DNA from: Sphagnum compactum | Lineage: Eukaryota | Reading direction: 5' to 3' | DNA: 64,000 nucleotides | Assembly (NCBI GenBank): GCA_965153455.1 | Contig: OZ234493.1 | Location: 35,764,213-35,828,212, forward strand | Shown here: positions 1,578 through 49,974 of the stretch, piece by piece | Layout of the letters: each line of letters begins with the position of its first letter | Position numbering within the stretch: the first letter of the stretch is position 1 | The notes under the pieces: generated by a model | Databases searched by the model: none | What the model saw: only the letters and a program-made list of their open reading frames with translations | Told to the model about the DNA's origin: nothing | Position numbers and translations under genes: made by a program

Positions 1578-3435
1578 CTTTTTTTGCCCCCATGTTCAAT
1601 TTGACCAAAGTGCCATTTTGGATAAGTCAATTTGGACTCAACCATTTTGACTTTGTTTTTTTGGTTGATCTTTCTAATTGGGTTCTTTTGACTAAGTTTT
1701 TTTTCACTAAACCATCATGACAATAATATAAATTGGGCAACAACCATAAATATATATTATTTAAATTATCTTATTTAATATTAATATGAAAATATTTATT
1801 AATTAATTAATTACCCTACCTACCCTATTCTACCTTACCTTAACCTACCTACCTACTTAATAAACCTAATAATTAATGCCAAAATAATTTATTTATTTAC
1901 CTACCAACCTTATGTCCTAGGCCTAGGTTAGGCCACCTAGGCTAGGCCAAGCCACTTAGGTTAGGCCAAGCCCCCTAGGCTAAGTCAAGTAGCCTAGGCT
2001 AGGTGGTTTAGTAAGTTTTGCAACCTAGGCTAACTAATTAGGTCACTTAAGTAGCCAAGGTAGGTTCAATTGCAAGTGTGAAGATTTGAACTCCTCACCT
2101 CCACATTGAGGAGTCAAGTCTTTAACCATTACAAGACCACCCCATAAGGTGATTTTTTTTGGACAACATATTATAATAAACATGATTTTGAACTAACATA
2201 TTATAATCAACATTCATGAATTATTTTTTCAACATATTGCACTAAATGAACTTGAATTTTTTTACATTATTTACATAAATGACTAAGTTATAAGTAGGTT
2301 ATCCTAAGTAGGTGAGAGGTACCTATTAATAAATGCATGTATTGGGTAACATGTAGATTCTATTAAGCCTTATAGGTACCTACTAAATCTATGTTTATAC
2401 CTACGCCTATGCTATTTAGTAAGATATGTAAGTACCTACTAGCCTATAATTAATAAATCTAGCCTAGGCATACTAGGTAGGTAGCCTAGTTTATTAAGTA
2501 GGTCTAGGGTTAAGCTACCTCTTTAATACTAAGCTAGGTTACCTACTTAGTAGCCTAGGTGGCTTAGCTTAGGTTAGTTATGTATACCTACATAATAGGC
2601 CTAAGTGGCCTAAGTAGCTTAGATTAGGCTACGTACATACCTAGTAGGCCTAGGTTAGCCTAACTTAGGCTACCTAAGCTATGTACCTACCTAGGTAGCC
2701 TAGGCTAGGCTAGGTACCTATTTAGTAGGCCTAGGTTAGTTTAACTTAGGTTACGTACCTACCTAAATACCCTAGGTTAGGTTACATACCTACATAGATA
2801 ACCTAGGTTAGGCTACATCCTAACCTAGTAGGCCTAGGTTAAGCTACATACCATGTAAGCCTAGGTGGCCTAAGCTAGGTTACGTACCTAGTAAGTTTAA
2901 GTGGCCTAGGTTAAGCTATTTACCTTGTAGGCCTAAGTGGCCTACTCTATGTACGTAGCTACCAAGGAGACTTTAATACTTAAATTAAAGTTAGGCTACT
3001 TTAGGTTATTACTTAACAAATAATCTACTAGCCTATTAATTATGCTAAGCTAGATAGGTAGTTTAAAGGCCTAGCCTAACCTATTAACTATGTTAGGTTA
3101 GGTAGGGAGCCTAGGCTTAACATGTAGGCTAAATCATCAAATGATTATGGTTCATTTGATTAAGTGTCAAATCATAATGGTTAATTTGATTAAACCCTAT
3201 CCATTCAATATGGCCAATTTGATTAAGCCATGGCCATCTTGATGCACATTTGTGCAATTTGACCAAATCTTTGGTTTGACATTTGGTCAAAAAGGTCACT
3301 TTAGTCAAATGTACTAATCAAATGTAACATGTGTTTTCCATGCCCCAAACCTTTAGTCAAAATGGACATACCCTTGTGTCAATGTGGACACTTTGGTTAA
3401 GTTGGCCTTTTGAAAAGTTATGTTTTCTCATAGTG
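1578..3435. mobile_element. Non-autonomous CACTA-like element, copy 1 (left end missing)
   Basis: Colinear homology with 18060-19640. The right end ttttctcatagtg reads CACTATGAGAAAAC in reverse complement, resembling the left TIR of copy 2. Interior is CCTAGG/TAGGC low-complexity sequence. Confidence 0.7.
2071..2143 (-). pseudogene. tRNA-like module inside CACTA copy 1
   Basis: 73 nt: GGGGTGGTCTTGTAATGGTTAAAGACTTGACTCCTCAATGTGGAGGTGAGGAGTTCAAATCTTCACACTTGCA; T-arm GGAG-TTCAAAT-CTTC. Confidence 0.55.
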
Positions 3436-3959
3436 AAAGTAGATAAAAATACATTTGAAACCAACAGAAAAATATGTGTTGAAACCTATTTTTTGGTTTA
3501 AAATTTTAATGAAATTGATATGTAATAAGTTAGGAAATGAAAATCAACATATGTTTTACCAGTCATTAAAAAAAATTTATTTCCTTTTTGTAAGAACCCA
3601 TTTGACACCCTTTTGAAACTAAAAGCCCATAGTGAAAAATAGATGTCAAAAGCTACTTGTATTTTGAAAAACCTACTTAAAACCTACTTTTGCAGTTTGA
3701 AATATGAAATCAATGCACATTAGGGTAAACATATATCATACTTAATCATTGAAATGAAAACATTCAATGTTCCACAATTTTATAATGGGTTTTGTTGTTA
3801 TTTTAAATCTACTTGTTCCAGTTTTAACAAGGTAATCAAGTTGTTCACTTTATTTTACTTAAACTCATTTCCATTTGCTCACCAACAATCCTAATACAAG
3901 TTTCTATCATTCTTTACTTTTTTTTTCACAAACACCCACCATTGAATATGAAGATGTCT

Positions 3960-6860
3960 AAAATTTTTAGAATGTTCATCCTTTTGAGAATGTAAGCGGA
4001 TGTTTTCAAGGAAGGTCACATGTTTTTAAAATCACAATATGGAACAATAACGAAGTTTTTAGGATCAACATCAACAATGGGAGGAATGGCACCTCGCACA
4101 TGATTAGACCTCCAATTGCTACAAGCCAAAAACCTTCCAAAAGGGCTGAATTTTGAATGGGCAAAGGATTTGACAACAATTCAAAGATGTTTTCCCAATA
4201 AGCCACGTAAGGACCAAACTTTCTAACATAGGTTTCATCCTTGCACATCCCCATCTTCCAAAAATCCACATGTTTAGAAAGCTTGTTGATATTTTTTTCC
4301 TTGTTAATGAACTTGGTGGCATCATTCCCCCATATAGGGCAAAAATAAATAGGATTCAAAAGTCCTTGGGGCAATTTAAGATGACCTGAGTCATCCATTT
4401 GGCACAATAAAATGGGAGGTCCATCTTTAAAACTCCAAAGGGCATTAGTAGGGGACACCTTATATTACATAATAGGCCACCCAACAGAATTTTTTTAAAA
4501 AGGAAACAAATGCACATGTCGATATGGCCAACCAAGATTTCAAACCCATATTTCAAGCATCCTTTGACCCAAGTCTTGAAATTCGTGATTTCTTAAATAA
4601 ATTGAAGAATTAAAGACAATCTTGTGAAATCATGAATGCTTTCATTAAGTCAATTAACACATAATTATCTTGTTCCTTCAATTTTTTGGAAAGATATCCA
4701 AAATTGCCATCAATGTTTTCATGGGTGTGGCCAACAACTAAAAACCCTAATTGCATTTCTTCAAACATTTATCTTGTAGTTAGGAGAGATAGGAATGCAA
4801 GCAAGTGACGATTTTTGTTATTTTTCACACAATTGTCCATTTGAAGAAACAACTTCCTAGGCAATGGCTTAGCACAAGTGAAATTCTCCAATACCTTCAA
4901 TGCAGCCAAACAACAAGAACCTCCATGCATCAATCTTTGAAAGAATACATTTTGTGGTTCATGTTCAAAAAGAATCTTGAATTCATTAACATGTTCCTTC
5001 TCCAAGGTTCAAAGTAATCGCAATAAAGACCCAATCATAAAATTTGGATCATTTGGCCAAAATTCGTTGGAGAATTGAGCAAAAGCCTTGAATCTCCATG
5101 ACCATGAACAATCATACTAATCAAAGTGATGAGAAGCTGACCCAAATTGGAAACCATTTTGTTTTTCACATTAAGTCTAGGAAGAACAATTTTGGAGTGG
5201 TCCATCTTGTCATGGATGATATAAAAATACTCTTTTATGGACTAGATTGATTCAGATCTCCAAGTGTGATAAAACAGTCTACATGACTTTCAATGAATGT
5301 TGTGTTTCTGAAATTTCATTTCATATTTTTTCACACCCACACTATTCTTGCCAACTTTGGATGTCAAATCCTTCAATGATTTACAAATAACACACTTGGC
5401 CAAGTTGGAACCATGTTTCCTCACATCAACATTTAAGTGATATTTCTTCCTCAAACAACTCATCGTAGATTAAAGGATTCTTCCAATTCCTAGCTCCTTA
5501 CAATCTACAATCCACAAAAACCAACAACATTGTTAACCAAATCGATTTGGGACTGTATAAATGAAGTTTTAGCATAAATAGGATTGAGGATTGCCTTGTG
5601 CACCTCATCACTTCATTCACGAACACTTTTCCATGTCTTTGGAATCACAAGTTGAACATCCTACCAACCATCCCCAATGCCTTTCATTTGACGGGGCATA
5701 ACATTCGCACACCTTGTTATGAGAGCTTCGACATTCAACACCACTTGCTTAGCAACATGACATTGTTTTTTGGTCCCTTTGTTTCCATGTAATAGGAATT
5801 TGTAGTCACATCGACTTTCTCGCTTGTACAACATATATGTTGATCTTGCCAAACCCACAACTTTGTACCAAGCTTTTTCACAAACCTTGACACCTTGAAT
5901 AATGATGAATTTTCATTTCCTGACATCAACTCTCGAATGTAATCATCGTGGGATGTCCAAACCATTTAAGCTTTCCAATCTTCATAAGACATCTCCCAAA
6001 ATTCTTCTCTCGTCAATGTAGTTTTTTCGCATGAAAAGTATTGACAACAATTCAAGGAACAAAAAACAATAGTTCCAATAGTGCGAATGGATTCTTTAGA
6101 CAATAGTTTGTCGACCCTTGACACAAGAACATCAGCATCCAAGGCCTTTTTCTTTCTCTTGTGAAAGGTAAATTTTTTTCTTCACACCAATTGCTCCCTC
6201 TACATTTACATCAAATATATCATCGTATGATTTCAAGAGAGCTTTCAAAGAATGCCCATGAAAAATTGTCTGTGATAGTGGCCACCCCCAAATACTCATG
6301 ACTGCTTATATGTCATCAAGGTAATACAAGATGATAATTCCACCCATTATCTTCAGCCAAATCATCATCAAGCAGTGCCTCTTTTGGGTCATATGCAATT
6401 ATTTGACCTTTAGCAACGAAAGCACCTTTGACCTCACTAACATCACATTATGTTCCTCTCCAACCGTAATGTTCCAATGAAGGAACATTTGGGTGGTCGT
6501 CATGACCATTTTTTCCAAGAGTACACAGGTTGGCCACTGGAGCACTATTGTGGCCATCGGAGCTATCATCACTATTATGGGAAACATTATTGGGTGTTGT
6601 GTTACCTTCATCTGATTTGGTGAATATTGGTTCATCTTCAATGGAGGATGTTGGGGCATGTTTCTAAACAAGAGATAAAACTCTCTTCATTCCCAAATTG
6701 TTGAATCCTTCCATGTGGCTTGAATTCATGCAACCCCATTCCACAAAATTTAGTGATGTCGATGTTATTCCAACCTTCAAAAACACGTCCTTTACAAGCC
6801 AAAAATAATTGACGCCTAGCAATTCCCCATGACATCTTGCTCTTGGACTTGGGCAAAATA
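3960..6860 (-). pseudogene. Decayed DNA-transposon transposase (DDD type, Sola-like)
   Basis: Minus-strand translation across stops and frameshifts gives: GSNLAKCVICKSLKD (CxxC, ~5400), IIHDKMDHSKIVLPRL (~5200), LFLQMDNCVKNNKNRHLLAFL (~4830), MFEEMQLGFLVVGHTHENIDGNFGYLSKKL (~4730). The D..D..GHTHExID layout is that of DDD transposases. The Sola assignment is inference. Confidence 0.75.
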
Positions 6861-8969
6861 GATTTTTGCCATGGATTTAAACACCACCAATGGTGAAACG
6901 ATAATACAATATTCTAGTCTAGATGCCCCATATATAGGAGCTAGCGTGGGATTCCTACAACGCCCACAACTAATCTACAATTTTTCCACTTGAAACGCAG
7001 TATCCCATAGATTAACATTGTCTCGAATAGCCAAGTCCCCAGCCATTAATCAATTAATGAATCTGATTGCATTGATATCGATAAAAAATATGATAGTTAT
7101 CTGCACTTGAACCAAGGAAAAACCTACTCAATGACCATAGATCATTCCATTTCTCAACGCGTATTCCATTTCAAATATTACAATTGAAAATTATATTATT
7201 TGAATACCAAAATGAATTTTTTTAAGCTCACATAATTGTTTACTTTCTCAAATATGCAAGAAACATGACTATGCAAAGTGTTGTTATATATATCGACATT
7301 CAGAATTCACCTAGTGGCCATCAGGTGGTTTAGTGAATTACCATGATGTTGCAAAAAAACCTACAAGCCACTAGGCAATGTCTTAAAGTATAGACCAAGT
7401 TTAAAAGTCCACCTAGTGGTGACCAATTGGTCTATTAGACTTCAACTATAGTTCAAAAGAACGTAGAATTCAACACTTCGTTCTACGCCAACCACAAAAT
7501 GTTAACCTAGTCACCATATCTATTAGAACGTTGTCAAATGTCATTGGTGAATAGTAGACATCCTTGTGGCCACACAAGTAACAAAATGTTAAATAGGCTA
7601 AAAAAATAAATATAGTCTGAACAAATCACACTCATATATTTTTTAAATAATTGGGTGATATTCCACACTACATATAAAATTCACAAAGAAAAATTCCATA
7701 CCCCTCACATATTGAAAATATATATTGATTTGAGATCCTTCAAACCATTAGCCAAAGGAAGGTTTAGTTTGGAAGAAGCGATAGAAAGTTCCAAACCAAG
7801 ATAGACATTACAAAAAAGAAAATTGGTATAGCTAAACCTTCCCTTAAGTGGAGCCCAACAAATTTTATATATCTCTTTATAATGACAAAATAAAGACTTG
7901 AGATTTTAATGGCGTCCCTTCTTTGAAACTTAATTATCTTTACGACTAATCAAAGCGTTGTCTTGTGGCTTTCATATTCAATAATATACTATGGTGCATT
8001 TAGTGGCCATAAGCCAAAATATTGCTTTCATGTTATATAGATTTTGAAACTACATTTAATATATTTGTTATAATACAAATAACATTTTTTGCTCCATTTA
8101 TGGTGTCCTTTGTCCAAAACTCAAAGAATTGAATTTTTCATTGTCATTTTAAATGGGAGCATTAACCCTTGGTTTGAAATAATTCTTTAAAATTATTGAC
8201 ACTCATTGTGTTATAGAGTTGAGAATAGTGATAGACTATGTCATCTTTCAATTGTAGCTTACAAGTGAATAGGGACAACCTAAGTTGAGGGGCTTGATCA
8301 CCTTAGATGGAATAGAAATGCATTGTAATTCTTTTAAGAGATTGATATGAATTCTTTTGAGAAGTCATCAATTTTAGAGCATTTGTCAAGCTTTGGATGG
8401 ATGGCACAATGTGTCATATCTATCCACCATCTGATTCATTCCCCTATTCCATTAAACATAATGTGTACATGTTGATATTATTTATTGGATTCAATTCTTG
8501 GGGACAATATTCTCATGTTTATTTAACAATAAACTTACTAAGACATTTAAATGATACTCATGTATAAAATGGTCACAAACTTGTTAAATCAGGTGCCAAC
8601 TTGGCATAGTTCATCCCATCTACCAGGTTGTTTACAGTCCTAAATTAAGAATTTAATCCTAAATTACACTAGAAGAAATTTTGTCCTTTGCAACCAAAAA
8701 TCTATGACTACAAGTCCTAAATAATTATATGTATGACTTTAGTCATAAACTATTACTTCGGTTTTTATGTGTAAGAAATTATAGTCATACATTAATGGGA
8801 CATGTGACTAGTAGATGATGAGGTGGTAACAAAATGGGGGATGCTAATTTTCATCACTTTTATTTCATCTATATGGCATCCATGACTAATGGCAAAGTGA
8901 CGTGATGTTCAATTGTCATTACAATGATTAAAAAATGGTTATAAATCATTTGATATGAACATAGACAAC

Positions 8970-9555
8970 CCTACCCCCACCCCCCACCTACCTATCACTT
9001 ACCTACCTACCTATTTACCTACCCACCCACCCACCTACCACATACCCACCAACCCACCCATCCACCACCTACCTACCTACTATCCACTTACCGACCCACC
9101 AACCTACCCACCCACCTACCTGCTTATTTACTACCCACTTATCTCCTTACCTACTTACTTACCTACCCACCCACTCACCTACCTACCTACTTCCCATGCA
9201 CCCAACCATCCACCTACCTACCTATTACCCACTTACCCACCCGCCCACCCATCCACTTTCCTATCTACCCTCCTATGCACCCACCCACCTATCTACCTAC
9301 TACCCATTTACCTACCCACCAACCCATCTACCTACCTACCTACCTACCTATTTCCTACCCTTCCACCTACCCACCCACACATGACCCACCTATTTACCTA
9401 CCTACCTAGCCACCCACTCACCCATCCATTTATTTACCTACCCATTCACCACCTACCTATTTTGTCAACCTACCTACTTACCTACCTACTTTTTATTTCC
9501 TATTTCCTATAACCTACCCACTTCCTACCTATCATCCTACCACATTCTACCTATT
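8970..9555. repeat. (CCTA)n/(CCCA)n degenerate microsatellite within the CACTA element
   Basis: Visible low-complexity tract; explains the PTYL-rich ORFs 8955-9512 and 9196-9384. Confidence 0.9.
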
Positions 9556-9621
9556 TCAAGTCTTGTAGTGATATGAAATAAACATGTGAAATAAAAAACT
9601 TGACCAAATTTGGCCACCTTT

Positions 9622-9694
9622 TGATGTTGTAGTCCATTGGTAAGGACTTGGTTTATCATTGTGAAGGTGAAGGGTTCAATTCTTAATACTTGCA
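9622..9694 (+). pseudogene. tRNA-like module (A box/B box) inside the intact CACTA element
   Basis: TGTAGTCCATTGGTAAGGAC gives a D-arm GTCC/GGAC and an A box; GGTTCAATTC is a B box; the module ends ACTTGCA. Acceptor and anticodon stems are decayed. Confidence 0.6.
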
Positions 9695-12469
9695 ACCTAT
9701 GTGCATTGTTAAGGGGCTAAGGTAAGTATGACAGACTAAAGTAGTTACATAGGTAGGTTACATAGGTTACATAAACCAGGTTAAGTTACTACCTACCTAC
9801 TTACCTTTTTCAACCTACCTAAACCTATTACCTACCTACCTATTAAAAATATTTTATGTCTGCCAATCATTTTTAGTCATTCCTTTTGTTTTTGTCTTTC
9901 CACAACACCTCAACATTATATATGGTTTGTTTTGTATGACTTGTTGTTTATGACTATAGGATGAAAAGTGCCACATCAAACATTAAGTGACTACTTGTCC
10001 TTTGCTATTCGTTCGTTACAACTAAGGGCCTTTAGTCATATAATGTCCAGTATGACTACAAATTAGTCATATATGGAGTCATAAATTTAAGAATTTCTTC
10101 TAGTGTTAATTAAATATGTGTTTTAATCACCAAGTTAGAAATTTAATATACTCAACGTCCATAATGAACAATTTATTCCTTAGTATATTAAACATATAAT
10201 GAACATAATATGTAGGCTTATGTTTGAACAACAAACACACAAGTTATTACTATTAACCATTGACTTGAATATTATTATTATGCATAGACAAGTTACTATG
10301 TTTAAATAAGATTCATTTTAGAACAAAAATTGGTTGCAATTCTTTTCCTGACCCTTCAAATATTTAAATTTACATTATCCCACATTGTGCCACTAGGTAC
10401 AAATTCCTAATGTACTAATGGTAACTACTTAGTACTCTTTGTTATCAAAGGATGAAGTTAAATTGGGGGTTAGTTAGATGAATGGTTGGTCATAATTCAC
10501 CAATCACCTATAATTTAACTAGTTGATTTCTAAGAAGGATTAGGATATCAAAGGACCTAATATTGTTATTGGAATGAAATGGGCCTTGTATGGTATTTTG
10601 AGGAAGTGGATATTCGAGATGGGATTGTTTTCTAGGAGACTCTTTTCATGTGAGGAAAGTGGTACATTGTGATATTGGAAAGCAAGGAAGAGAGTATGGA
10701 TGCAAGTTGTACATGTATTCTTGCAATGGAAAAAGGTTGGGAGATTTTCAATGTATTTAATTCATTTTGGACTTTTGAAAAATCTAGAATTAACAAACAT
10801 TGATTATTTGGAGATTGAAAATTTGGAGAGAGACAAGTTTGATTTAGGGGCCACAGTATGATGCAACAATATATATTAATAATGTTTTGACTCACTAGAT
10901 TATCCAAAACATAGATGTTTCTAGTGTAAATTTGTTTCAAATTCAATAGAAAATTTGATCGTAACCACCAAGGCTAAAAAAATAATCCATAATTAATATT
11001 TTAGTCTAGAAAATTTGTTTATCAATGTCGGTGTTTTATTTCAATTATGATAATATGATGGATATAAAGGAAACTTGTGGTGGGAAAAGATGTTGAAAAC
11101 GGTAGGTAGTAGCGAAAAAAAGGGTATGCATGTGTTACAGATGTAAGACAATCGGTGTTGGAGGCATGCAAACCCCACCAATGACCTACATTACTCATCT
11201 CTAGAGGTAGTACTTTAGTAATTACCATATTTGGGTGGGTATCACAATTTTATGATACATGCTAGGTTTGGTTTTCACAAAGTAATTTACAAAAGGGTTT
11301 GGTTCTGCCCCAAAATGTAAAAACAAAATTCTACATTGGGCAAGGGTATCAACATTTTAAAAAAAATTGACATTGGTTTTCACAATGTTGGTTTTCAAAA
11401 ATTTGAAAATAGCCGATTATCCTTTGATGGTTCTCACAAATCGGGTATTGCCTTTTATTTCTAAAAATAAATAATTAATTAAAAATAAAATAAAGATTAA
11501 ATATTTATTGATTTGCTTTCTTTTTTTAATGATAGCTAGCTTTTAGAAAAGATTCAAAATCAAAGGACCTCTGGTTTAAGGTTTTTGAGGGATCTCAAAA
11601 ATAAATTTCAATTTTGGGTTTTTGAAAAAATTCAAAAAACTTGATTAGTTTTATGGAAGAATTGTAAAAGAACCAAAGCTTTGGGGGCTAGGTTCTTTGA
11701 CCTATTCTTTTGGTTTTTTGAGATTTACAGTTATGAGTGAAAACCAATCCTTTGATTTTTTAAAAATTGTTGGTCATGGCTCCATAATACCTAGACCTTA
11801 CCTGCTAGTTCTTTCTTCGAAAAAGAGAGAAGATAGAACAAATGTTTTGTTTTGGCAAATGGTTTTTTACAAAATGGTAAAAATTCAGGGTTGAAAAGGT
11901 TTTAAGTCACGAAACAAAAAGATAATTAAGAATTTTATAATTTGCCAGATTCTATCATAGTTCCAAAACATAGCCAAAAATACAGTTTAATTTTTTTAAT
12001 TAAAATTTTTATTGCCATATTTGGCTAAATATTCACTTCAAATACATCACAAAATTGAAAAGAAAAACATTCACTAAATTAGAAGTTGAAAAAAACCCAA
12101 TAATAATGTTAAACTCTCTAAACATCATTACCATCTTACTTGGCCTACCATCAATAATATATATGAAAATGTTTTTTTTTTAATGTGCACATTTTATTCT
12201 ATTTTGAAAAGGGAATTTTTTTGTTAATATAATGTTATACTAGGAAAAAAATATTTATAAAATAAAATAAAATATTCTTCCTTGTGTTTTAACATGTAAA
12301 AATAATTTTGATTTAACATGATTCATCAATTCAAATTCATCAAAGTTTTATCATTTAATCTTTGCAAGTAATGGAAAGTTTTACTTCTAAAAACATAAAT
12401 ATTGAAAATCCAAATTATTATGGACATAAAATTAACTATCAAATAGAAAGATTAAAATGAAATTGTGGC

Positions 12470-14309: not shown

Positions 14310-17300
14310 TTAAATCAGCCTAATTTAATTAGGGCTAAAGGAAAGACATTTTCATCATCATCAAACCCACATCAAAATTTGCCTATTAAGTCTAAATTTA
14401 TCGTTGGAGATGGGAGATCCAAGGGAGGGCTAATATTTGGTGATAGGTACTTAAAAAAACAACTAGTAAGGCCAATAGTGTGCCACTATTGAACTACTAG
14501 CGTTCAACTAGGTCAATGTGACTATTGCAACAACTTATTAATGTATTAACTTAATTTCACTACCCATTCATATTAATATGTCATATTTTATAAAAAATAT
14601 TGTTACAATAATTTGACTATTAAATATAAATTTTTCTTGATACATTTAAGTATTATGAACTTATTAATTATATTAAATAATGAACTAGATCAATTAATTA
14701 AGATATTAATCATTATCTCATCAATAATTACCATATCATTAATTATCTAAATTAACATGCAAACTAATTCTCTAGATACATATAATTAATTTAAATGTGA
14801 AACTAAAAACAATCATGTGTATATTAAATTTAAAGTTCATTTTAAGTGTAGTACAATGTATGGATATGACTATTTATACCTTGATGTTTTTACCCAAATT
14901 CATATTTATTAATTTTTTAAATGATGAATTATTTGTCAATAATTTATTATTTAATATGTAATTTACTTAATTATTCTGAACTAATTACTTAAACTGAATA
15001 ACTAACTATTAATATGATTTCTAAATAAATAGTTTGATTCAAATAATTTGTTAAATGTTAGTTAATTCAAATAAAATTTAATAAAAAATTTAAATTTCTT
15101 ATTGATAACTGAATAATTATATGAATTTAGATAATTAATCATTTGATAATAAATTATCTGAAATAAAACATAAATTATTTATTTCAAGTAACTAATTAAC
15201 AAATTAAATGAATTATTCTAAGTTTGATTACTTCAAACAATGTTTTATTTGGTTAGTTACAACAATTAATTATCTCAATGTTTAAATTAGTAACTTAAAT
15301 TAGTTGAATTAGACTAATTAATTTAGGCTTAAACTAGTTCATTGGTTAATTAAATGAAATAATTGATCCAAATAATTAATTATCATACATGTAATTCAAA
15401 ATTTCGAAATTTTGATAATTATTTCAAATAATTACAAAACAGATTTCATGTGAATGGTCTACCTAAGAACATCATGAAGATCATCATTTTGCTAACGTTG
15501 TCAAGTTAAATGATAAAATGTTATGATGGATAATTCATTTTCACTATTGATTTAAATACATTGTTTTCTGATTTTGATTAAAAACTATCCATTAAAATAT
15601 TACAAAAAGTTGAAATTTAAGGTTTTTAAAATATGTTTTGATATTTGATTTAATTAATAGAAACTATTTTTATTTTCTTTAATTTTGATTAAAATCGTTA
15701 TTAAATTTAAAATATTGAAAATAATAGTTGTTAAAAAATTCAATTTAATAATGAATATAAATCCATATCAAATTAATTAAAAATTGTATGGATGTCGAAT
15801 ATGGTTTAACAATTTAAAATACACCAAATCCACACATTGTTCACATTCCTTTCATAGGAAACAAAATATTGAAATTTAACATGTCTAAAAAAAGTTGCAA
15901 TTGTGATTTGTAGGTCAAAAAATTGCAATTGTGATTTGTAGGTCAAATCATTTGATATGATTCATCAAATTGACGTGCTTGTTTTTATGACAACACTTTC
16001 ATCTTTTATCATCATATTAATATTCAAAAATTATGTCAATATTGATAGTTTTGAGGGTTTTCATAACTTGCAAAAATATTATTTTATCTTCAAATAATAG
16101 GAATTCACTAATTCTTATATTATAACTTTATTAAGATTTTTCATTGAGAAGCAATGACAAATTTTGTAGTGATAAAGTTTTGCTCATCTATCCATATATT
16201 AAGTCATGATGATTCACATAATATGAATTTATTTACCTATATGATGATTAACATCAATCTATTATTTTTTCCCACTTGCATTTTGACTTGTAAGATGATT
16301 CACATTAATCTATTGCACATTTCAAAGTTTTCTTATGTTTTAGCTTTCTACTATGCAATATATTTAATTATCACTTGAGATCTTTTCATGTTACATGATT
16401 ATGTTCATTCTTGTTCATTTAAAAGCATTTTTCATAGTCCAATTCAAGAAATTCATGGACTTTTGCATCACTCAATTGTTATTTAAAATCTTGCATGATT
16501 TTATGAAATAGATGTTATTATTTGAAAATCATCTATCATCACATGCCATCACAGAATTGTTCATTTCAGATCATTTCTCGCAGAATTTTATTAATTTGCT
16601 TATATTCATTCATTGATTTCTCCTATTCATTAACCATCAATTATGTTTCATGTTTCCTATAGGATCAACTAAATCCGAATGTGTCAAAAATTCACCCACA
16701 ATGTAAGAACCTTTCAAAACCTCACCCTCTACATATGCAATACTTAGTTTAGATATTCATTTCTAGTTGATGAAAAGAAAAAAATGGCACTTGGTGGTCA
16801 CCAGGTGCCATTTTCGTCGAAAATGAGGAAAAAACAAGCACCCGGTGACCACCAACATCACAAACTTCTTGGGGAAAAATAATTTTGTAAAAATAATGGG
16901 AATTGGTATATAATGTAAATTGGATCAAATGTCATTTTTTAGTTATTTCAACAAGTCTTAAAATTATATTTTACTATCATAGTATCAACATAAACATAAT
17001 TATTTTTAAAAATGATATAAATTAAAAATCACCTTGAGTGGTAAAATTTTGCATTTGTGTCATGAAAATAATGGTAAAATGACAAACCATTATTCTTTTC
17101 ATCATCATAATCATGCAATTAATAAGTCAAAGTCATTGTTCATTATGTTTATATATTTTCAACAAACATTTTATCAACAATAAAGTAATAAAGTGAAAAA
17201 CATACAACAATGATGTGAAAAAAACTTAACAAACAACATAAATATAATGAATCATTATAATCATATTGAAATTTTGCTTAAGGAAGTTTGTGATGAGGTG

Positions 17301-17376
17301 CCCTTCTAGTCAATGACGAGGACAAAAGGGACTTTGTGACATTAGTTGCCTTAAAATTCCATAAATAGGAAAAAAA

Positions 17377-17746
17377 TGCACTTGGTGGCCACCAAGTGCA
17401 ATTCTCGTCAGTGATGAGTAAAACAGAGCACCTGGTGGCTATTGAGTGCAATTCCCGTTGACGACAAGTAAAACACAACACTTGGTGGCCACTAGGTGCC
17501 TTCTTAATCCAAGAAAATAAATAAAAAACTTGGTGGCCGTTAGGTGCCATTTTCATCAATGATAAGAAATAAAAACACATAGTGGCCACTAAATGTTTCT
17601 TTGTTTTATTATGAAGAAAAAAAAGATCTAGTGGCCACAAGGTGCCTTCTTAATCTAAGAAAAGAAAAACAAAGAACCTAGTGGCCGCTAGGTGCCATTC
17701 TCATTGAGGATGAGAAAAAAAAACACTAGGTAGCCACTAGGTGCCC
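17377..17746. repeat. Array of 8 palindromic ~22-bp repeats at 48-50 bp period (outliers at 16781-16860 and 17930-18003)
   Basis: Perfect 24-bp palindrome tgcacttggtggccaccaagtgca at 17377-17400. Palindrome centres fall at 17388, 17438, 17488, 17536, 17585, 17634, 17684 and 17733. Confidence 0.85.
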
Positions 17747-18003
17747 TTACATTTGATTATGAACAAACATTACAACAAAAGGTGTCCCTATACGCAAAGT
17801 GAAAATTTCATTAGATTATGAGTGAATTCTTTGGTTATAATGAATGGGACTTAGTGGGGAAGCAATGAATTCATTGGTCTAGTGAACGAAGATTAGTGAA
17901 TTGCACCCACATTTTGTAGTAATGAAAAAAAAGACTTGGTGGCCACCAAGTGCCTTTTTAGTCCAAAAAGAGATTAAAAAGAACCTGATGGTTGCTAGGT
18001 GCC

Positions 18004-19820
18004 CACTACAAGAAATCATGGCCTTTTGGATTGGGAATTTTAGTCAAAAAAACGCTCCATATGGTTTTTTTGCCCCCATGTCCAACTTGACCAAAATGTC
18101 ATTCTAGACAAATTGTTTTAAACTTGATCATTTTGACTTGGTCTTTTAGGTTGGTTTTTTTGACCAGGTTTTTTTTATTGAACCACCATGACAATAATAT
18201 AATTTGGGCAGTGATCAAAAATTATATTATTTGAATTTTTTAATTTAAAACTTATATCAAAATACTAATTAATTAATTACCTACCCTACCTACCTACCTA
18301 ATTAATAAACCTAATAATTACTTAGGCCAAAAAACAATTTATTTATTTACCCACCAACTTTATGTCCTAGGCCTAAGTTAAACCATCTAATTTAACCACT
18401 TAGGCTAAACCAAACCACTTAGGCTAGGCCAAATAGATTACGCTAAGTGGTCTCATAGACTTTGCAACCTAGGCTACTTAGCTAATTAAGTCATCTAAGT
18501 AGCCAAGGTAGCCTAGGTTGCATGTGTGGGGCTTTGAACTTCTCACCTTCACATTGAAAAGTTAAGTTCTGAACCATTGCACCAACACCCCATAAAGTGA
18601 TTTTTTTGGACAACGTACATATTGTAATGAACATGATTTTGAACAACCTATTTTAATCAACTTTTATGAATTTTTCAACATATTACACTAATTGAATTTG
18701 AATTTTTTTACACTACTTACATATATAGGGGTACCTATTAATGCATCTATTTAGGTAACATGGAGGTTATAATCTATTAGGCCTTATAGGTACTTACTAG
18801 GTTTATGCTTATACCTACCTAGTAAGCTACCTATGCCCATCCTATTTAGTAGGCTACATAGGTACCTATTAGCTTATTAATAGATCTAGCCTAGGCATAC
18901 TAGGTCGGTAGCCTAGCCTATTCAGTAGGTTTAGGCTTAAGTTACCTACCTAATACTAGGTTAGGTTACGTACCTAGGCATAAGTGGCCTAGCCTAAGTT
19001 AGCTACAAACCTACTTAGTAAGCTTAGGTGGCTTGGGTAGCATAGGTTAGGTTATGTACCTACCTAGTAGGCTTAGGTTAGGCTATGTACTTACCTAAGT
19101 AAACTAAGTTAAGCTACGTACCTAGGGAGCTTAGGTTAGGCTATCTATTTGCCTCGGTAGCCTAAATTACGTTACGTACCTACCTAATAGGCCTAGGTGA
19201 AGTTAACTTAAGCTACCTAAGCCTAGGTTAGGCTATGTACCTACCTAGGTTAGGCTAAGTATTTGCTTAGGTAGCTTAGGTTAGGCTATGTACATATTTA
19301 ATAAACTTAAGTGGCCTAGGTTAGTTAGGCTATGTACATACTTAATAAACTTAAGTGGCCTAGGTTAGGCTACATACCTTGTAGGCCTAGGTGACCTAAA
19401 TTAGGCTATATACCTAATAAGCTTAAGTGGCTTAAGTTAAGCTATTTACCTTATAGGTCTAGGTGGCCTACATTATGTACGTAACTACTAAGTAAACTTA
19501 GATAACCTAGGTTAGGTTACCTACCTAGTAGGCCTAGGTAGCTTAGGCTACTTACCTAGTTAGTAGGATAGGCTACAGGTCTACTTACTAGGCCTAGGTG
19601 GTTTATGTTATTTACTAAATAGGCTTAAACTATGTATTTATAGAGGTTTTGGTCAAAAGGTAAAAGTTTAATAAAAAAATATAAATGTCTTGTTAAAAAA
19701 TAAAAGTTTAGTTAGGAAATATATAGGTTTGTTTTGAGAAGTAAAGGTTTAGCTAGGACAAGATAGAAGGTAGGTAGGTAGGGTGAGTAGGGGGATTGCT
19801 TGTTAGTTGGTAGGTAGGGC
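18004..19820. mobile_element. Non-autonomous CACTA-like element, copy 2 (right end not found)
   Basis: Starts with CACTACAAGAAA (18004-18015), the canonical En/Spm terminus; homologous to 1578-3100. Confidence 0.75.
18519..18591 (-). pseudogene. tRNA-like module inside CACTA copy 2
   Basis: 73 nt: GGGGTGTTGGTGCAATGGTTCAGAACTTAACTTTTCAATGTGAAGGTGAGAAGTTCAAAGCCCCACACATGCA. Confidence 0.55.
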
Positions 19821-27633: not shown

Positions 27634-27654
27634 TTTTGTGTGGAACAGCGCAAT
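27634..27654 (-). promoter_or_regulatory. Conserved 21-bp upstream element of MIR536 copy 1
   Basis: ttttgtgtggaacagcgcaat is identical at 42283-42303, while the flanks cannot be aligned. Confidence 0.6.
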
Positions 27655-42171: not shown

Positions 42172-42177
42172 TTTATA
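42172..42177 (-). promoter_or_regulatory. TATA box of MIR536 copy 2
   Basis: CTATAAAG on the minus strand about 240 nt upstream of the hairpin. Confidence 0.55.
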
Positions 42178-42282
42178 GCACACAATTTTGCAGATGACGA
42201 GTGCAGAAGAAGAACCAGACATATAATTCATTTCAATTGCCGTTGTTGTTTTTCTTTTTTTCTTTCTTTTTGTTTTGGTTTG

Positions 42283-42303
42283 TTTTGTGTGGAACAGCGC
42301 AAT
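42283..42303 (-). promoter_or_regulatory. Conserved 21-bp upstream element of MIR536 copy 2
   Basis: Identical to 27634-27654; about 105 bp upstream of the TATA box. Confidence 0.6.
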
Positions 42304-45715: not shown

Positions 45716-48700
45716 CATTCATAATTTATACTCCAAATCCCTTGAATGTTATGAAACCATCAATGAACATTGAGTTTATGGTAATTTTGAACACAAATTT
45801 TGAAAAGCTTTTATGTAGTGAAAGTACAATATTTTTGTAATTTTTATGTAATGTTTTTTGGTTCATATATATATATATATAAAGGCTTACTTTTATTCTC
45901 CATTTATCTAGCTAGCAAGGATCAAGAGTTGTATATTTTATTGAAATTGTTGATAATTCATTTTGCCAAAGATTAATTGCACCTACAAAATAGACGAAGT
46001 TCAATTTAGAAGCTTTTTGCATTTAGTTCAATTTGAACACATATAAATTATCATAAAACCCTTTATTTATTCACATATTGGATTCTTGAGAAGTATAACA
46101 ACTCAATTTAATTATCGAGTTTATGAAAAAATAAAACAAACTGCATTCAAGAACCAAAAACTATGAACAGTGCCAAGCACAAAACACATAAGTTTTTAAT
46201 TTAGAGCTAAATTTGTTTCCTTTGGAGGATGTGATCAAATGTCAAGTAAAATATATAGGTAGTTGATCACAATTCTGTTGAAGGCTACAAGTTCATGAAT
46301 TGTCAATCTTCCTTTGTTGGACAATGGCATCAACTAATATATTTTTCTAAATGAGATTAATTCATAGAGGCAACCAAAGAGTTCACAATGAACTCAACAA
46401 TGCACATTTTGCAACACACTCCTCCCAAATATGTAATTTATAACATATTGAGATGAAATAGTGTTACTTGACCATTTGTCCACTTGGGGTCTAATAGTTT
46501 GCACAAGCTATAGACCCAAAAATTCCTTTTCTTTAGGAGCTATGAACATAGATGCCTCTTGATTGCATATGAGGACCCCTTTAATAAACTTGGGCTCTGC
46601 ATAGATATGCATTACCAACGACAATCGTTTCTTATGTTTTCATATTTTTTCAATAGTTTATCATTATTTATGTCAATGTCAAATTTAATTTGAATTAATA
46701 TAAATACCATGGACATGAAAAGGCTTATGTTAATCTTTTCATATCCATGCTGGTGGGTATGGAAGATGAATGTATTACACACTCCCCAATGTTTAAGATA
46801 GTGGATAACAAAGGATAAAACATTTGCCTTGAAGGCTTTCACAAGTTTGAACGCTTGTGAGAATGAAAGGGGTGAAAATTTGTGAAGCACCAAAAGGGGT
46901 CCCTAACCTTACATAAAACATTTTGAAAGAAAAAAAAAAGTTCATTAACCACTTAATTGCCAACCTAGAGAACATGTTACATTTGACAAACCTATGCCCA
47001 TGTAAGTTCATGGGGTTTATAAGCCCATTACAAATGCAAAAGGATTTTTTCCAAAATGATTTATGAACAAAGTCTTACAACAAATTAAAACCAAGGATTA
47101 TATATATGCCTGCATAGGTACGAAGTTTAGCAAATAATTAAAATTAATATTTAAGTAAAACATTAAGATCATTTGTTAACTTTTTAAAAATTTGCCTTGT
47201 TTACTGACCTAAAAAAGTTGATGTTGTGTTTAAGGTTTTTTTTTCATGATTCTAGTTTTGGTTTTGGATCTAGCAAAAGTGTTAATGCATGGTTTAGTGG
47301 CTCATTTTTTGAAAAAAAAAATCCACACAAAGTTCATTTTATAGTGTTAATTTGGTAAACTTATTTGGGTTGATCATTGGTTAAATGGAAATAAAATCCA
47401 TGTATCAAAAGAAACCCAAGTAATGATGTTGGAAGAATATGCACTTATGAAAAAAAGAAAATTGAAAATCATTTGGGACAACAAAAACTCTAAGGGCTTA
47501 TGAAAATGTGATTAAATTTTGGCCATTCAAAAATCCCTTGTTAGAAGGGACTATTTAGCTATGATTTTTGACAGAAAAAATTCACATGAACATTAACTAG
47601 TTCATGTTACACCACATACTAAGTCATTATAATATGAAATTTGGAATGACAATCAATATATGAACTCTTCAATATTCTATTGTTCCAATTAATTAACTAG
47701 TCCATATTTTTGCATTTAAAAAAATCCACTATTAGAAATGGACGTACTTTTTTCAAAAATCAATTACCCATATGCATTCATAATGAAGTTGTAAATTTAA
47801 AATCAAGTCCTAATTGGTAATAATGTAATTAATTTCAATGTAATTAAAAAAATGACATAAAAATGAGCCACCCATTAATGCATACACCCAAAAGGTGAAT
47901 TCTACAAAATTTCATTTTTTGTGCTCTTTCTAACAAAAGGGTGTTAGCTTGGTTCTAGGATGTAAGAACTTTACCTTAAACCTTTGGATTTAACATTGTA
48001 AACTAAATATTTTCATAACATTGGTTTGAACCAAACGCATTGTTGTAAAAATGAATTTCATTAATTTAAAATTTTTTTTCTTTCAATCATCAATGTTAAG
48101 ATTGTTTTTAATTTTTGAAAAGGAATGGTGCACATTTGATAAGGAAAATAGATGTTTAAAAAATAAAGATGTTTGAGCATTAAATTAATGTGCAAAAGAA
48201 CTTTTGATTTGCAACAAATTTTAGCATTAAATAATGGAACATATTCTAAAAATATTGATAATTCAAATTATTGTGCCCTCCTTATGAAGTTTTAGAATAT
48301 AAAAATATAACTTTAAGTAATATCCACCCCTTTAAGTGATCCCTTTGATTGTGTTTTCCAACCTAACATTGCCAATTAATTAATAACAAGGTAACATAAC
48401 AACATGTTTGAGATACATAACAAATAAGATTATGGCATCTGTGTGTTTATAATAAATGTCATTACTTTTGACACTAGGCATGTGAATGTTTTTAATATCC
48501 AAACAATGAACACAAAAATGTTAATTATCATGTGAAGGTCATAATTGTGAAAAAGCAAAAAGGGAACAACAAGATGAAAAACCAACAAATTTTCAGGAGC
48601 TTGAAATGGCAACATTCATCAACAAATTGTTCAAAGATAAATATACAAGATTATGTCCATTACACCAATATGCATCCAAGTTCATTTTGTGTCTCACTAA

Positions 48701-48724
48701 ATTTTGAACAAAATTGGACAAATT

Positions 48725-49974
48725 TACCATGGTGAAAGTGAACAACCCTTTAGGAAATAGGGACAAATTGTTATGGACAAGTGTATTCACTAATAACTAA
48801 TTAAATTCACCAATAATTAATCAAATTCACTAATAATTAAATCATTAACAATAAATTCATTAATAGTTAAATCATCAATAATAAATTCATTAATAGTTAA
48901 TTCGAACTTAAGTTAGGCATCTAGGAACCTAACCCACATATACACTTAGGGCTCCACCAACGCAAGGTGCAAGCGTGAAAATTTGAACTCTTTGCCTTCT
49001 TTCATATCCATGTTTAAGGAACAAGTCTTTAACCATTGAACCACTATTTAAATGGGTAATATTTTTTTGTCATCACATGTTATTATGCACATTCTTTTTT
49101 GACTTAAGCTATTCTTGGCAATTTTTGGTTATTTTATTAGAAATTATTTTACCATTGATTATTCTTGGTTATTTTATCATTGACTACTATTGGTTATTTT
49201 TCGTTATTTTATTATATGCTATTTTTTGTTATTCTATAATTGGCTATTGTTGACTATTTTATTGTAGGTTATTTTTAATTAATTTAGGCTAATTTACCAT
49301 AGGCTATTGTTATTTATTTTAGGTTATTTTTTATACGTTATTTTGGGCTATTCTATCATAGGTTATTGTTGGTTATTTTATCATAAATTATTTTTGGCTA
49401 TTCTAGGTTATTTATCATATGCTATTTTGACTATTCTATTGTTGGCTATTATTGACTATTATATTGTAGGATATTATTTGCTATTTTAAACTATTTTGTT
49501 GAAGATTATTCTTGGCTATAGTAAGCTATTTTATTACAAGTTATCTTAGACTCTATTATTAGTTATTTTAAATTAATCTATCTTAGATTATTCCACCTTA
49601 ATTTATTATATATTATTTTATTATATGTTATTTTACCTTAGAGCATTATATTTATTTTATAGTATTTTAAGTTATTATACCTTAAGATAAACTTATAACT
49701 TAAAGTAGAAAGCTTATAATAAGTTAGGATACCTAAAGATAGAATAACTTTTAATAGTTTAGAGCATAATAATTTATGATAACTTGTAATAATTTATAAT
49801 AATTTAGAGTATAAATTAGAATAACTAAGGTAGCTTAAAATAACATAAGATATATTATAAACAAACTAAGATACTTAAAATAACATAAGATATATTATAA
49901 ACAAAACTAAGATACTTAAAATAACAACACATGTTGTATGGCAAGGGCTACAACTAAAATTTTTCACCATAGTG
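48725..49974. mobile_element. Degenerate CACTA-like non-autonomous element
   Basis: Right end tttcaccatagtg (reverse complement CACTATGGTGAAA); left end taccatggtgaaa (11/13 match). Internal TTATT-rich repeats flip to AATAA-rich near 49690. The TSD is not preserved. Confidence 0.5.
48968..49046 (-). pseudogene. tRNA-like module inside the degenerate CACTA element
   Basis: TAGTGGTTCAATGGTTAAAGACTTG...GAGTTCAAATTTTCACGCTTGCA, homologous to the other three modules. Confidence 0.5.

Follow-up and report, generated by a model that had tools for sequence, protein, structure and literature searches.

In elements that move via RNA, such as SINEs and Cassandra-type TRIMs, the presence of a Pol III promoter module comes as no surprise; a DNA transposon needs no such transcript. 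The tRNA-derived unit reported here, which is carried inside non-coding CACTA transposons, can be compared with several described systems, of which the first is TRIMp3 (Cassandra, Helenus and Ajax), a group of non-autonomous LTR retrotransposons with a 5S- or tRNA-derived Pol III promoter, as described in PMC10886601. In Helenus and Ajax the promoter motifs were kept and the RNA structure was not, as argued in that paper. TRIMp3 elements have LTRs, PBS and PPT and need an RNA template (PMC10886601), which makes the benefit of a Pol III promoter plain. The elements studied here are likewise non-autonomous transposons other than SINEs with a segment that came from a small-RNA gene, they also kept promoter motifs without RNA structure, and capture of a SINE or of a small-RNA gene is again a plausible origin. 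Unlike TRIMp3, they are cut-and-paste CACTA elements with one internal unit, inverted ends and 3-bp target site duplications (TSDs), and with no obvious need for a transcript. The term 'DNA transposon' is not mentioned in the text of PMC10886601, and the comparison with TRIMp3 is used here as a working analogy only.

Spread of a SINE-derived segment by DNA transposition has been reported for MER6/MER6A, a MITE whose copies are inactive (PMC6887750) and which, with TRIMp3, comes nearest to the present case. However, MER6 is Mariner-derived and carries the 'highly conserved domain' of V-SINEs, which belongs to the SINE body and is not a tRNA-related head, and it is a single family, whereas the units described here span a set of families with different ends. 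MITEs are stated to be without a Pol III promoter in PMC3879986 and PMC3845634. The tRNA-derived SINEs (SINE2 type) share with our units a repeated tRNA-related segment that has both boxes, A and B, along with a degenerate cloverleaf, but here the 5' end of the repeat is not formed by the unit, which has no tail or TSDs of its own (TSDs were sought by eye) and moves within CACTA-ended elements with 3-bp TSDs, with no free-standing copy among the 87 listed. The host elements resemble the plant non-autonomous and Pack-CACTA (En/Spm) elements in their CACTA...TAGTG ends, 3-bp TSDs, subterminal repeats, non-coding content and captured foreign segment, and the end form CACTACAAGAAA agrees with what we take to be the En/Spm terminus. 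Protein-coding genes are the described source of the fragments captured by Pack-CACTAs, whereas the captured piece here is a tRNA-type Pol III unit, common to at least eight families and the sole segment alignable between them. The literature searched, which did not extend to Repbase reports or subscription journals, contained no description of plant DNA transposons, CACTA or other, with a tRNA-like or Pol III unit inside them.

The window is the whole stretch of Sphagnum compactum DNA that was analysed, 64 kb in length. Labels of the sequencing runs, DHC_N1 exons and the plant-type CACTA ends point to a moss, while the N-terminal ORF P0001 had neither a homologue among longer proteins nor a usable Atlas match. 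Four related modules had been described in it, and they were confirmed with their coordinates and strands:

m1: 2071..2143, minus strand, tRNA-derived unit; the cross-family part extends to ~2189 (AT-rich leader), with an abrupt end at 2070/2071
m2: 9622..9694, plus strand, tRNA-derived unit; the common unit spans 9580-9695 and lies 411 nt from the right end of host element e2
m3: 18519..18591, minus strand, tRNA-derived unit; the 18004 end of host element e3 is 515 nt away
m4: 48968..49046, minus strand, tRNA-derived unit, 310 nt from the 48658 end of host element e4

An nhmmer profile built from the four modules was searched against the 64-kb window and retrieved only these four, with E values in the range of 1e-24 to 1e-32 (2e-32, 5e-31, 6e-29 and 1e-24), the next-best match having an E value of 0.049. 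The mean column identity of their alignment was 68%, and m4 contained a 10-nt internal duplication typical of family A. Judged by these comparisons of sequence, m1 to m4 are true homologues, i.e. decayed copies of one unit of ~80 nt. The pairwise homology spanned 2189-2070, 9580-9695, ~18640-18514 and 49098-48968; its 3' edge was abrupt at ...TTGCA, and its 5' side was longer than the preliminary description gave. At 2070, loose ends in 25 and 23 contigs and in 24 reads coincided with the 3' edge of m1.

The elements that carry the modules were delimited as follows:

e1: 1579..3435, minus strand, non-autonomous CACTA element of family B, truncated at 1579 and intact at its 3435 end
e2: 8667..10105, plus strand, complete non-autonomous CACTA element of family C, 1439 bp, with TIRs at 8667-8680 and 10092-10105
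e3: 18004..19640, minus strand, non-autonomous CACTA element of family B, intact at its 18004 end, the other end lost near 19640
e4: 48658..49974, minus strand, element of family A with a well-supported end at 48658; 49974 is a candidate upstream limit only

The elements around the four modules are non-coding, and every one of them has a CACTA-type end on at least one side. All four had been placed between CACTA termini, which holds in full for e2; e1 and e3 have one end each, and the end pair of e4 is unsupported. A brute-force search for paired CACTA ends in the window returned e2 only, whose ends match (CACTAGAAGAAATT; 20 of the first 30 terminal bases agree) and are flanked by the TSD TTA at 8664-8666 and 10106-10108; its subterminal motifs are ATGACTA/TAGTCAT. 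The sole preserved end of e1, at 3435, reads CACTATGAGAAA on the minus strand. At 1579, 23 contigs (X1), 14 contigs (X6) and 40 reads (X21) continue into sequence like that of e3 at 18030-18064, and e1 is therefore truncated at this position. The single end of e3 at 18004 has the form mentioned above for En/Spm (CACTACAAGAAATCATGGCC), and family-B ends read CACTACAAGAAATCA[CT]GGC on both sides, in different copies. The subterminal motifs TTTGACCAAA/TTTGGTCAAA were read directly from the sequence in both e1 and e3, and these two hosts, which had been regarded as poorly alignable, are 71% identical across ~1.35 kb.

For e4, the end at 48658 (CATTACACCAAT; CATTACACCAATATG, decayed CACTACACCAATATG) is supported by the family alignment, in which conservation falls from about 0.84 to 0.52 beyond it, and it replaced the end proposed earlier at 48725. 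CACTATGGTGAAA at 49974 had been given as the TIR type of e4, but it has no matching partner and its flanks differ (GTC vs TAA), so there is no TSD and a terminal pair is not supported; it was rejected as a family-A end because exact occurrences were found only in e4 and its orthologue L067. Family A shows one end only, no inverted partner being found within ~2 kb upstream in the 27 loci listed, and it carries the subterminal motif TTAACTATTAGTGAATTT (read directly from the sequence). The CCTA/TAGG-rich repeats that had been described near all modules were found as arrays bordering e1, e2 and e3, whereas the upstream array of e4 is of the AATAACC type.

Copies outside the window were taken from metagenome contigs of a related moss. 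In total 87 copies were considered, the four in the window and at least 83 from the metagenome, and all 83 were gathered with a search pattern built on the A and B boxes. Since the source of all these extra copies is a closely related moss, with unique flanks about 91-92% identical, the evidence covers one lineage. Before counting, seven duplicate contigs and three second matches within one locus were removed. Among 120 listed pattern matches, 30 were without the module (GC 0.26-0.51) and were excluded; one of these loci is a cluster of genuine tRNA genes, and ARAGORN found no tRNA in the other 29.

The layout of the elements was constant. End 1 with its subterminal repeats is followed by a long CCTA/TAGG- or AATAACC-type array, then by an AT-rich leader (40-70 nt), the unit, a short array, and the subterminal repeats with end 2. 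The unit is oriented toward the nearer element end in every case, at a distance of 0.2-0.55 kb, and within families the homology extends 0.3-1 kb upstream of it. CCTA/TAGG arrays border the unit in 79 of the 87 copies listed, at ~5x the distal density, and a CACTA-like terminal 12-mer was found 150-700 nt downstream in 26 of 50 copies listed (5, 5 and 2 of 50 in controls). Brute-force searching for paired ends in the 4-kb loci gave weak, chance-level pairs only, and element ends were then located by family alignment and terminal motifs. Three complete elements were obtained, e2 (TSD TTA), L064 (TSD GGC) and L025 (TSD GTA), with identical 3-bp TSDs on the two sides and with 19-20 of 30 terminal bases matching between the inverted ends; in the further candidate end pairs of L040, L032 and L074 the TSDs do not match. 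The family-A end was present in 20 of 25 listed loci, at or near +239 to +338. In the 90 loci listed that contain the module, 15 ORFs of at least 120 aa lie within ~2 kb of the unit, and no transposase was recognised among them. We conclude that a group of non-coding CACTA (En/Spm-like) transposons in this moss lineage has carried the unit internally since its ancestor, and that the unit spread with them as DNA, with 3-bp target duplications, and not as a SINE.

The alternative of an ordinary SINE, with the unit as the head of retroposons of tRNA origin that inserted separately into several CACTA elements, would account for tRNA-type boxes in the right order and spacing, and also for the many family pairs that share only 65-72 nt, which is the size of a tRNA head. 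However, the position of the unit, its orientation to the nearer end and the AT-rich leader are identical across families, the homology runs on upstream of the unit in each family, and the unit lies between CCTA/TAGG arrays in nearly all copies, as counted above. Beyond the TTGCA edge there is no A- or T-rich tail, and no direct repeats were seen by eye around the unit. The read depth of the module equals that of the subterminal parts of the element and is not many-fold above it (module bin 63, adjoining bins 28 and 35, subterminal bins 43-72, in DNA reads with the same species label); this depth and the loose ends at 2070 are independent of the box search pattern. Free-standing copies with TSDs and A-tails, by which the preliminary description would have recognised an ordinary SINE, numbered 0 among the 87 copies listed, and we consider this origin extremely improbable.

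The family consensuses keep an A box TGGTGCAATGG together with a B box GGTTCAAATCC (3 of 8 consensuses) or AGTTCAAATCC (2 of 8), the box motifs used for this assignment being general consensus forms and not the output of a tool. The canonical A-to-B offset of 44 nt holds for 5 of the 8 family consensuses; in one more it is 43. The boxes were nearer to canonical in the consensuses than in individual copies: the A box was present in 58 of the 87 copies listed, the last two B-box positions (CC) in 26, and the strict combined pattern in only 6. In m1, the genome majority at 2131/2134/2135 (48-50 of 50 contigs) restores the A box of the consensuses.

A conserved transposon cis-element without tRNA ancestry, for example a binding site for the transposase or a host factor, in which A and B boxes occur by coincidence, would be consistent with the failure of tRNA detectors to recognise the unit, and with the loss of the 5' acceptor half in most families, including A, D and G, while the 3' stretch CACACTTGCAACCT was conserved. 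It is hard to reconcile with two boxes that are offset by exactly 44, as in tRNAs, in a setting that resembles the D and T arms, and that occur in the window only at modules. The combined A/B pattern (B box with one variant at each end) matched in the window only at m2 and m3, and 50 block shuffles of the window gave a mean of 0.00 matches for this pattern and 0.16 for a loose one. ARAGORN relaxed to an 80% threshold predicted a cloverleaf on m2 and m3 in the same register, each with an odd 4-base anticodon, against a false-positive background of 1.5-3% (18 calls in 1200 shuffles, 37 in 1200 random pieces of the window). Coincidence of the boxes is therefore considered very unlikely, and the features of the sequence indicate that the unit derives from a tRNA gene, corresponding roughly to tRNA positions 5-76.

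The unit is not itself a tRNA. ARAGORN at default settings found 0 tRNAs in the window and 0 in the 87 module contexts listed. Rfam gave no match in the window at the gathering score, and with E values up to 10 allowed, neither 1900-2300 nor eight well-preserved loci matched a tRNA. Single-sequence folds of the modules were not better than those of shuffles (z from -1.7 to +1.1), and RNAalifold on 30 copies gave a consensus of -1.24 kcal/mol with only 1 of 10 predicted pairs compensatory. The acceptor stem and cloverleaf were lost. As to an oligo-T terminator, the first T4 run lay within 30 nt downstream in only 5 of 57 copies listed (median distance 111 nt), and for the window modules it lay roughly 110-265 nt downstream, as read from the sequence. 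A functional tRNA gene was thus rejected, since boxes at tRNA spacing are present but without a cloverleaf, compensatory stems or a nearby terminator; the tRNA-like cassette proposed earlier stands with regard to its boxes and their spacing and fails with regard to the cloverleaf.

Among the at least eight element families, the unit (65-118 nt, consensus to consensus) was the sole mutually alignable segment. Over 28 consensus pairs its identity was 0.68, with 0.45-0.51 in the flanks and 0.44-0.49 for shuffled partners, in line with the earlier observation that poorly alignable hosts nevertheless keep the module, which is to be seen as an integral, inherited part of several non-autonomous CACTA-type families. 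Part of this identity is forced by the search pattern, as 26 of the 30 rows of alignment A2 were found with the box-based pattern; when the columns of the pattern were left out, the 20 nt on its 3' side still reached 0.68 vs 0.46 shuffled and the 12 nt on its 5' side 0.55 vs 0.36, the next 20 nt giving 0.41 vs 0.39. The flanks are low-complexity arrays or transposase-binding repeats with fast turnover, which weakens the contrast between families and makes the AT-rich leader its only roughly neutral comparator; the leader was near shuffle level between families (0.50-0.51 vs 0.42-0.49).

No such excess was found within families. Between e1 and e3 the module had an identity of 0.74-0.78 and the flanks 0.78-0.84; in family A the module without pattern columns reached 0.841, the leader 0.858 and the last 100 nt before the end 0.850. 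For the orthologous pair e4/L067 the module was identical at 70/79 positions (88.6%), and the flank outside the element at 496/538 (92.2%). The A/B module, which had been expected to be conserved above adjacent sequence, is so between families, but not within families or at this one orthologous locus. As the module decays like its neighbours, the copies of today are old relics evolving neutrally.

Chromatin barriers can be formed by tDNAs and by extra-TFIIIC sites, and the present copies might accordingly serve the host as TFIIIC-bound barriers or as sources of small RNA, as the box motifs in some copies would allow. The missing excess of conservation argues against such a present-day host function, e.g. 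insulation: the orthologous copy is not slower than unique flank, copies within families decay like their flanks, and the strict box pattern is kept in so few copies. A present-day role for the host is thus regarded as highly improbable.

The same data may also be read as those of a passive passenger, in which one ancestral tRNA-gene capture, or one insertion of a tRNA-derived SINE, has been carried ever since without a role, and the unit only appears conserved because its surroundings, i.e. microsatellite-like arrays and subterminal motifs coevolving with the transposase, turn over faster than by substitution. The decay of the unit at the pace of its flanks within families and at the orthologous locus is consistent with this reading, and so are the missing cloverleaf, conserved fold and terminator, the low-complexity arrays on its flanks and the identity imposed by the search pattern. 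MER6 provides an example of a MITE that carries and spreads a SINE-derived segment (PMC6887750). On the other hand, columns outside the pattern are still conserved between families on both sides of it, whereas the adjoining non-repetitive leader is near shuffle level, the consensus boxes are closer to canonical than those of single copies with the offset of 44 in most families, and the decay of individual copies is silent on selection acting on the master copies that transposed. We therefore regard a passenger without any role as a real possibility, but not as a probable one. A single ancient capture of a tRNA gene or SINE head is the likely origin of the unit.

Our preferred explanation is that a tRNA-derived unit was inherited in CACTA elements, once served them and is now a neutral relic. 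As a whole this seems probable, and its structural part, i.e. inheritance of the tRNA-derived unit inside the CACTA elements, is very probable. Between families, ends and subterminal motifs can no longer be aligned and only the unit has persisted; its boxes are nearest to canonical in the consensuses, and the RNA fold was not kept. These facts may point to a function, and we tentatively propose, somewhat short of considering it probable, that the unit may have served the active elements as DNA, in the form of a type-2 Pol III promoter or a site for TFIIIC binding. Such a unit might keep the neighbouring transposase-binding region accessible, or alternatively drive read-through transcription toward the element end. 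Anti-silencing, insulation and small-RNA production, the roles suggested in the preliminary description, are conjectural. One poly(A) RNA run had 6 reads in total, at 3028-3249, and 0 on the module, and is uninformative for Pol III products.

A more far-reaching and more doubtful form of this proposal is that the CACTA lineage retained the tRNA-derived type-2 Pol III promoter/TFIIIC site as a selfish cis-element. TFIIIC or Pol III would then be recruited beside the subterminal transposase-binding repeats, and the recruiting end would stay nucleosome-poor and unmethylated, so that the element could still be mobilised; the unit could in this way have outlasted the divergence of at least eight families, in which ends and binding motifs became unrecognisable. 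By analogy, and with the same doubt, a selfish cis-element of this kind in CACTAs would be the DNA-transposon counterpart of Cassandra and the other TRIMp3 elements.

For annotation, these loci call for caution, because box-based SINE finders would label them as SINEs and screens for tRNA pseudogenes could catch them. If the unit is a mere passenger, it would provide a clean case of a tRNA-derived segment spread by DNA transposition. If it was kept in CACTAs by selection, it would suggest that class II transposons exploit the Pol III machinery at the level of DNA, with TFIIIC binding, open chromatin and barrier activity as candidate uses, and these moss elements would offer a concrete bryophyte system in which to test them.

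The window holds four copies of a tRNA-like unit of about 73-79 nt with an A box and a B box (modules m1-m4), and the positions and strands in the preliminary description were correct. The modules and their non-autonomous CACTA-type host elements (e1-e4) are listed here.

2071-2143, minus strand: m1, in e1 (family B), whose end CACTATGAGAAA is retained at 3435 on the minus strand and which is cut at 1579
9622-9694, plus strand: m2, in e2 (family C; 8667-10105), with CACTAGAAGAAATT at both ends and 20 of 30 terminal bases matching
18519-18591, minus strand: m3, in e3 (family B), with the end CACTACAAGAAATCATGGCC retained at 18004 and the opposite end lost near 19640
48968-49046, minus strand: m4, in e4 (family A), where the family end appears as decayed CATTACACCAAT at 48658

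The alignment of the four modules had a mean column identity of 68%, with the invariant blocks ..TGG.., ACTT, GTTCAA and TGCA, and the profile search that had been suggested, run with an HMM built from them, matched just these four sites in the 64-kb window (E-values 2e-32, 5e-31, 6e-29 and 1e-24; next match E 0.049). A combined box pattern, consisting of an A-box consensus, a gap of 28-40 nt and a B box with one variant permitted at each end, matched at m2 and m3 only; 50 block shuffles of the window gave a mean of 0.00 matches. By sensitive pairwise comparison, the stretch common to the four copies is about 120 nt (2189-2070, 9580-9695, ~18640-18514 and 49098-48968), comprising an AT-rich leader and a 73-nt tRNA-like part with a sharp edge at ...TTGCA.

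The unit is not a recognisable tRNA. The tRNA check that had been proposed was carried out with ARAGORN, which found no tRNA in the window nor in the 87 copy contexts among the matches listed. Rfam gave no match at the gathering score and, at E up to 10, no tRNA match on 1900-2300 nor on eight of the best-preserved related loci. Single-sequence folds were no better than shuffles, and RNAalifold on 30 copies gave -1.24 kcal/mol with 1 of 10 pairs compensatory. The 5' acceptor half is absent in most families, and an oligo-T terminator was not found in general, the first T4 run lying within 30 nt after the unit in just 5 of 57 copies among the matches listed. A chance likeness to a tRNA would agree with these results; it is nevertheless unlikely. 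Three further observations bear on the ancestry. At an 80% threshold, m2 and m3 were both given a cloverleaf by ARAGORN, in a common register and at the coordinates first described (background: 18 hits in 1200 shuffles and 37 in 1200 random pieces of the window). The family consensuses contain the A box TGGTGCAATGG and the B box GGTTCAAATCC (three families) or AGTTCAAATCC (two families), with an A-to-B offset of 44 in five of the eight consensuses and of 43 in another; an offset of 44 is the tRNA spacing. At positions 2131, 2134 and 2135, 48-50 of 50 contigs of the species differ from e1, toward the A box TGGTGCAATGG. The relaxed cloverleaf, the box spacing and the contig majority restoring the A box thus support a tRNA ancestry, and we read the unit as tRNA-derived DNA in which the promoter boxes were retained and the RNA structure was lost.

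When metagenome contigs were scanned with a pattern based on both boxes, at least 120 loci were obtained. The module-bearing loci, at least 90, were AT-rich and had at least 93 nhmmer hits. Thirty loci without the module were left out, one of them a genuine tRNA gene cluster; ARAGORN found no tRNA in the other 29. After seven duplicate contigs and three second hits within one locus were also left out, the analysed set comprised 83 copies among the matches listed and the four window copies, 87 in all. The metagenome locus L067, from a related moss, is the orthologue of the e4 locus, with unique flanks 91-92% identical; the contigs are therefore those of a close relative, and a single lineage is represented. 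Among the matches listed, family A has 41 copies (with e4), family B has 8 (with e1 and e3), family C consists of e2 and L079, and the remaining copies form five small families and 22 singletons. Fragments of an LTR-retrotransposon integrase (rve, SH3_retrovirus) and of a plant NLR-type LRR lie on two module-bearing contigs (L037:3347-4054, minus strand; L043:3-683, plus strand), as fits plant nuclear DNA in metagenome assemblies. A divergent subgroup (L003, L011, L032, L035 and L101) has the terminus ...TGACAT instead of ...CTTGCAAC, and its unit is preceded by TCACCA...TGGTGG, possibly a hairpin between the leader and the 5' end of the unit; L003 and L032 have CACTA-like ends ~430-490 nt downstream of the unit.

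The placement of the unit inside transposons was borne out; no free-standing copy was seen among the 87 from the matches listed. Every displayed context has a common layout of array, AT-rich leader, unit, ACCT and array. Among the matches listed, the CCTA/TAGG density beside the unit has a median of 3.0 per 100 nt versus 0.6 distally, and in 79 of 87 copies one or both sides lie above the 90th percentile for distal DNA (five of the eight below the cut-off belong to family A). Of the 50 listed copies with enough flank, 26 have a CACTA-like terminal 12-mer at 150-700 nt downstream; the upstream side and the reverse strand gave 5 of 50 each, and shuffled sequence gave 2 of 50. Three complete elements among the matches listed have inverted ends in which 19-20 of 30 bases match, and each lies between identical 3-bp duplications (TTA for e2, GGC for L064, GTA for L025); in three other candidate end pairs the target duplications did not match. 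The CACTA ends here are of plant type, and no transposase was found among 15 ORFs of at least 120 aa within ~2 kb of the unit (among the matches listed).

In the window, e2 is a textbook non-autonomous CACTA element, with the target duplication TTA/TTA and the subterminal motifs ATGACTA/TAGTCAT. Elements e1 and e3 are two decayed members of one family, with 71% identity across ~1.35 kb. Past 1579, same-species contigs and reads continue into sequence resembling e3 18030-18064, which confirms the truncation of e1. The DNA directly beyond the e1 end (3436-3600) has a depth of 65-89 in same-species reads versus ~5 in the lowest bins, and e1 thus lies inside or beside another repeat. Tandem arrays adjoin e1 (660-1251, units ~145 nt, 78-89% identity) and e3 (16780-17960, with units of ~100-150 nt at 17369-17767); palindromes of the (C)TAGTGGCCACTA / CACTTGGTGGCCACCAAGTG type abound in both arrays, which do not align with each other at E 1e-5 and may be part of another element family.

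The boundaries of e4 had to be corrected. When e4 was aligned with 27 related copies among the matches listed, the family-A boundary was sharp at ...CATATTGGTGTAGTG, column conservation dropping beyond it from ~0.84 to 0.52; the left end formerly set at 48725 thus lies inside the element. As a family-A feature, CACTATGGTGAAA at 49974 was rejected: among the matches listed it is exact only in e4 and its orthologue. It is at best a candidate upstream end of e4, and paired with 48658 it gives no TSD (GTC vs TAA). An inverted copy of the family-A end was not found within ~2 kb upstream in the 27 listed loci, so family A has one good CACTA-type end. Just outside e4, ~865 additional bases in L067 (142-1008) stand opposite 18 in the window (48100-48118), an insertion or deletion between unique flanks ~91% identical. 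A short tandem repeat lies just past e4 (50097-50345, ~100-nt period, 87% identity).

Independent SINE insertions into the elements could also have brought tRNA-derived units into them. This explanation is unlikely: among the matches listed, the unit is oriented toward the nearer element end in all cases, at 411 nt in e2, 515 in e3, 310 in e4, 509-548 in other family B copies and 239-338 in family A. In raw DNA reads labelled with the same species, depth is 63 in the module bin, 28 and 35 in the two adjacent bins and 43-72 in subterminal bins. The unit thus roughly equals the element ends in abundance, whereas a separate SINE family would exceed them many-fold.

Individual copies of the module are no better kept than their neighbours, contrary to what conservation of the boxes would require. 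Between e1 and e3, identity is 0.74-0.78 in the module and 0.78-0.84 in the flanks; in family A it is 0.841 in the module minus pattern columns, 0.858 in the leader and 0.850 in the last 100 nt before the end; and in the orthologous pair e4/L067 it is 70/79 (88.6%) in the module, 90.8% subterminally and 496/538 (92.2%) outside the element. Present copies therefore drift neutrally, which disfavours a current host role, the orthologue test being one locus; a present-day host function of the copies is unlikely.

Family consensuses reflect what transposing master copies retained. Between them, the unit is the sole aligning part: 26 of the 28 pairs have 65-118 nt of homology, and none was found in A-H and D-H. 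Mean identity over consensus pairs is 0.68 in the module, 0.45-0.51 in four flanking 70-nt segments and 0.44-0.49 for shuffled partners. Since copies had been found via the boxes, pattern columns were taken out; identity was then 0.68 vs 0.46 shuffled in the 20 nt after the box pattern, 0.55 vs 0.36 in the 12 nt before it, 0.54 vs 0.42 between the boxes and 0.41 vs 0.39 in the 20 nt further out. Independently of the pattern, an exact break-off at 2070 was seen in 25 and 23 contigs and 24 reads. The turnover of the arrays and of the transposase-binding repeats may exceed the neutral rate, weakening the between-family contrast, for which the AT-rich leader is the only fair control. The main rival, a single ancient capture after which the unit was carried along neutrally, agrees with the drift of present copies; set against the between-family contrast it is credible but rather doubtful.

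Elsewhere in the window, a multi-exon dynein heavy chain gene lies on the plus strand (51317-52333 and 54062-58514). Five ORF pieces from the exons at 54-58 kb match Pfam DHC_N1, ordered along the profile (E 4e-13 to 1e-4); homologue searches with the long low-complexity N-terminal ORF 5' of them found none. The presence of this gene suggests that the organism has motile, flagellate cells. Taken with the plant-type CACTA ends and the sequence words shared with 'moss metagenome' runs, the DHC_N1 exons suggest a bryophyte, probably a moss. Two dispersed repeat pairs of 75-76% identity (12284-12422/36584-36709 and 48042-48140/36395-36497) are unrelated to the module. For 1400-10200, runs of four other organisms and several 'moss metagenome' runs contain 8-9% of sampled words, so some sub-part is near-identical across taxa, perhaps organelle-derived or highly conserved DNA.

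Searches of openly available full texts found no report of such a unit in CACTA or other plant DNA transposons. The nearest concept is TRIMp3, the LTR retrotransposons Cassandra, Helenus and Ajax with 5S- or tRNA-derived promoters (PMC10886601). A V domain of SINE origin was multiplied by MER6, a MITE (PMC6887750), and in two papers a missing Pol III promoter is regarded as typical of MITEs (PMC3879986, PMC3845634).

The preliminary observation thus stands, and its interpretation is supported in part only. Several CACTA-type non-autonomous families have inherited the tRNA-derived unit, with its promoter boxes, as part of their interior, and the present copies are relics. We tentatively suggest that the unit may have been retained because the elements profited from it at the DNA level, where it would be a predicted Pol III/TFIIIC-type site.
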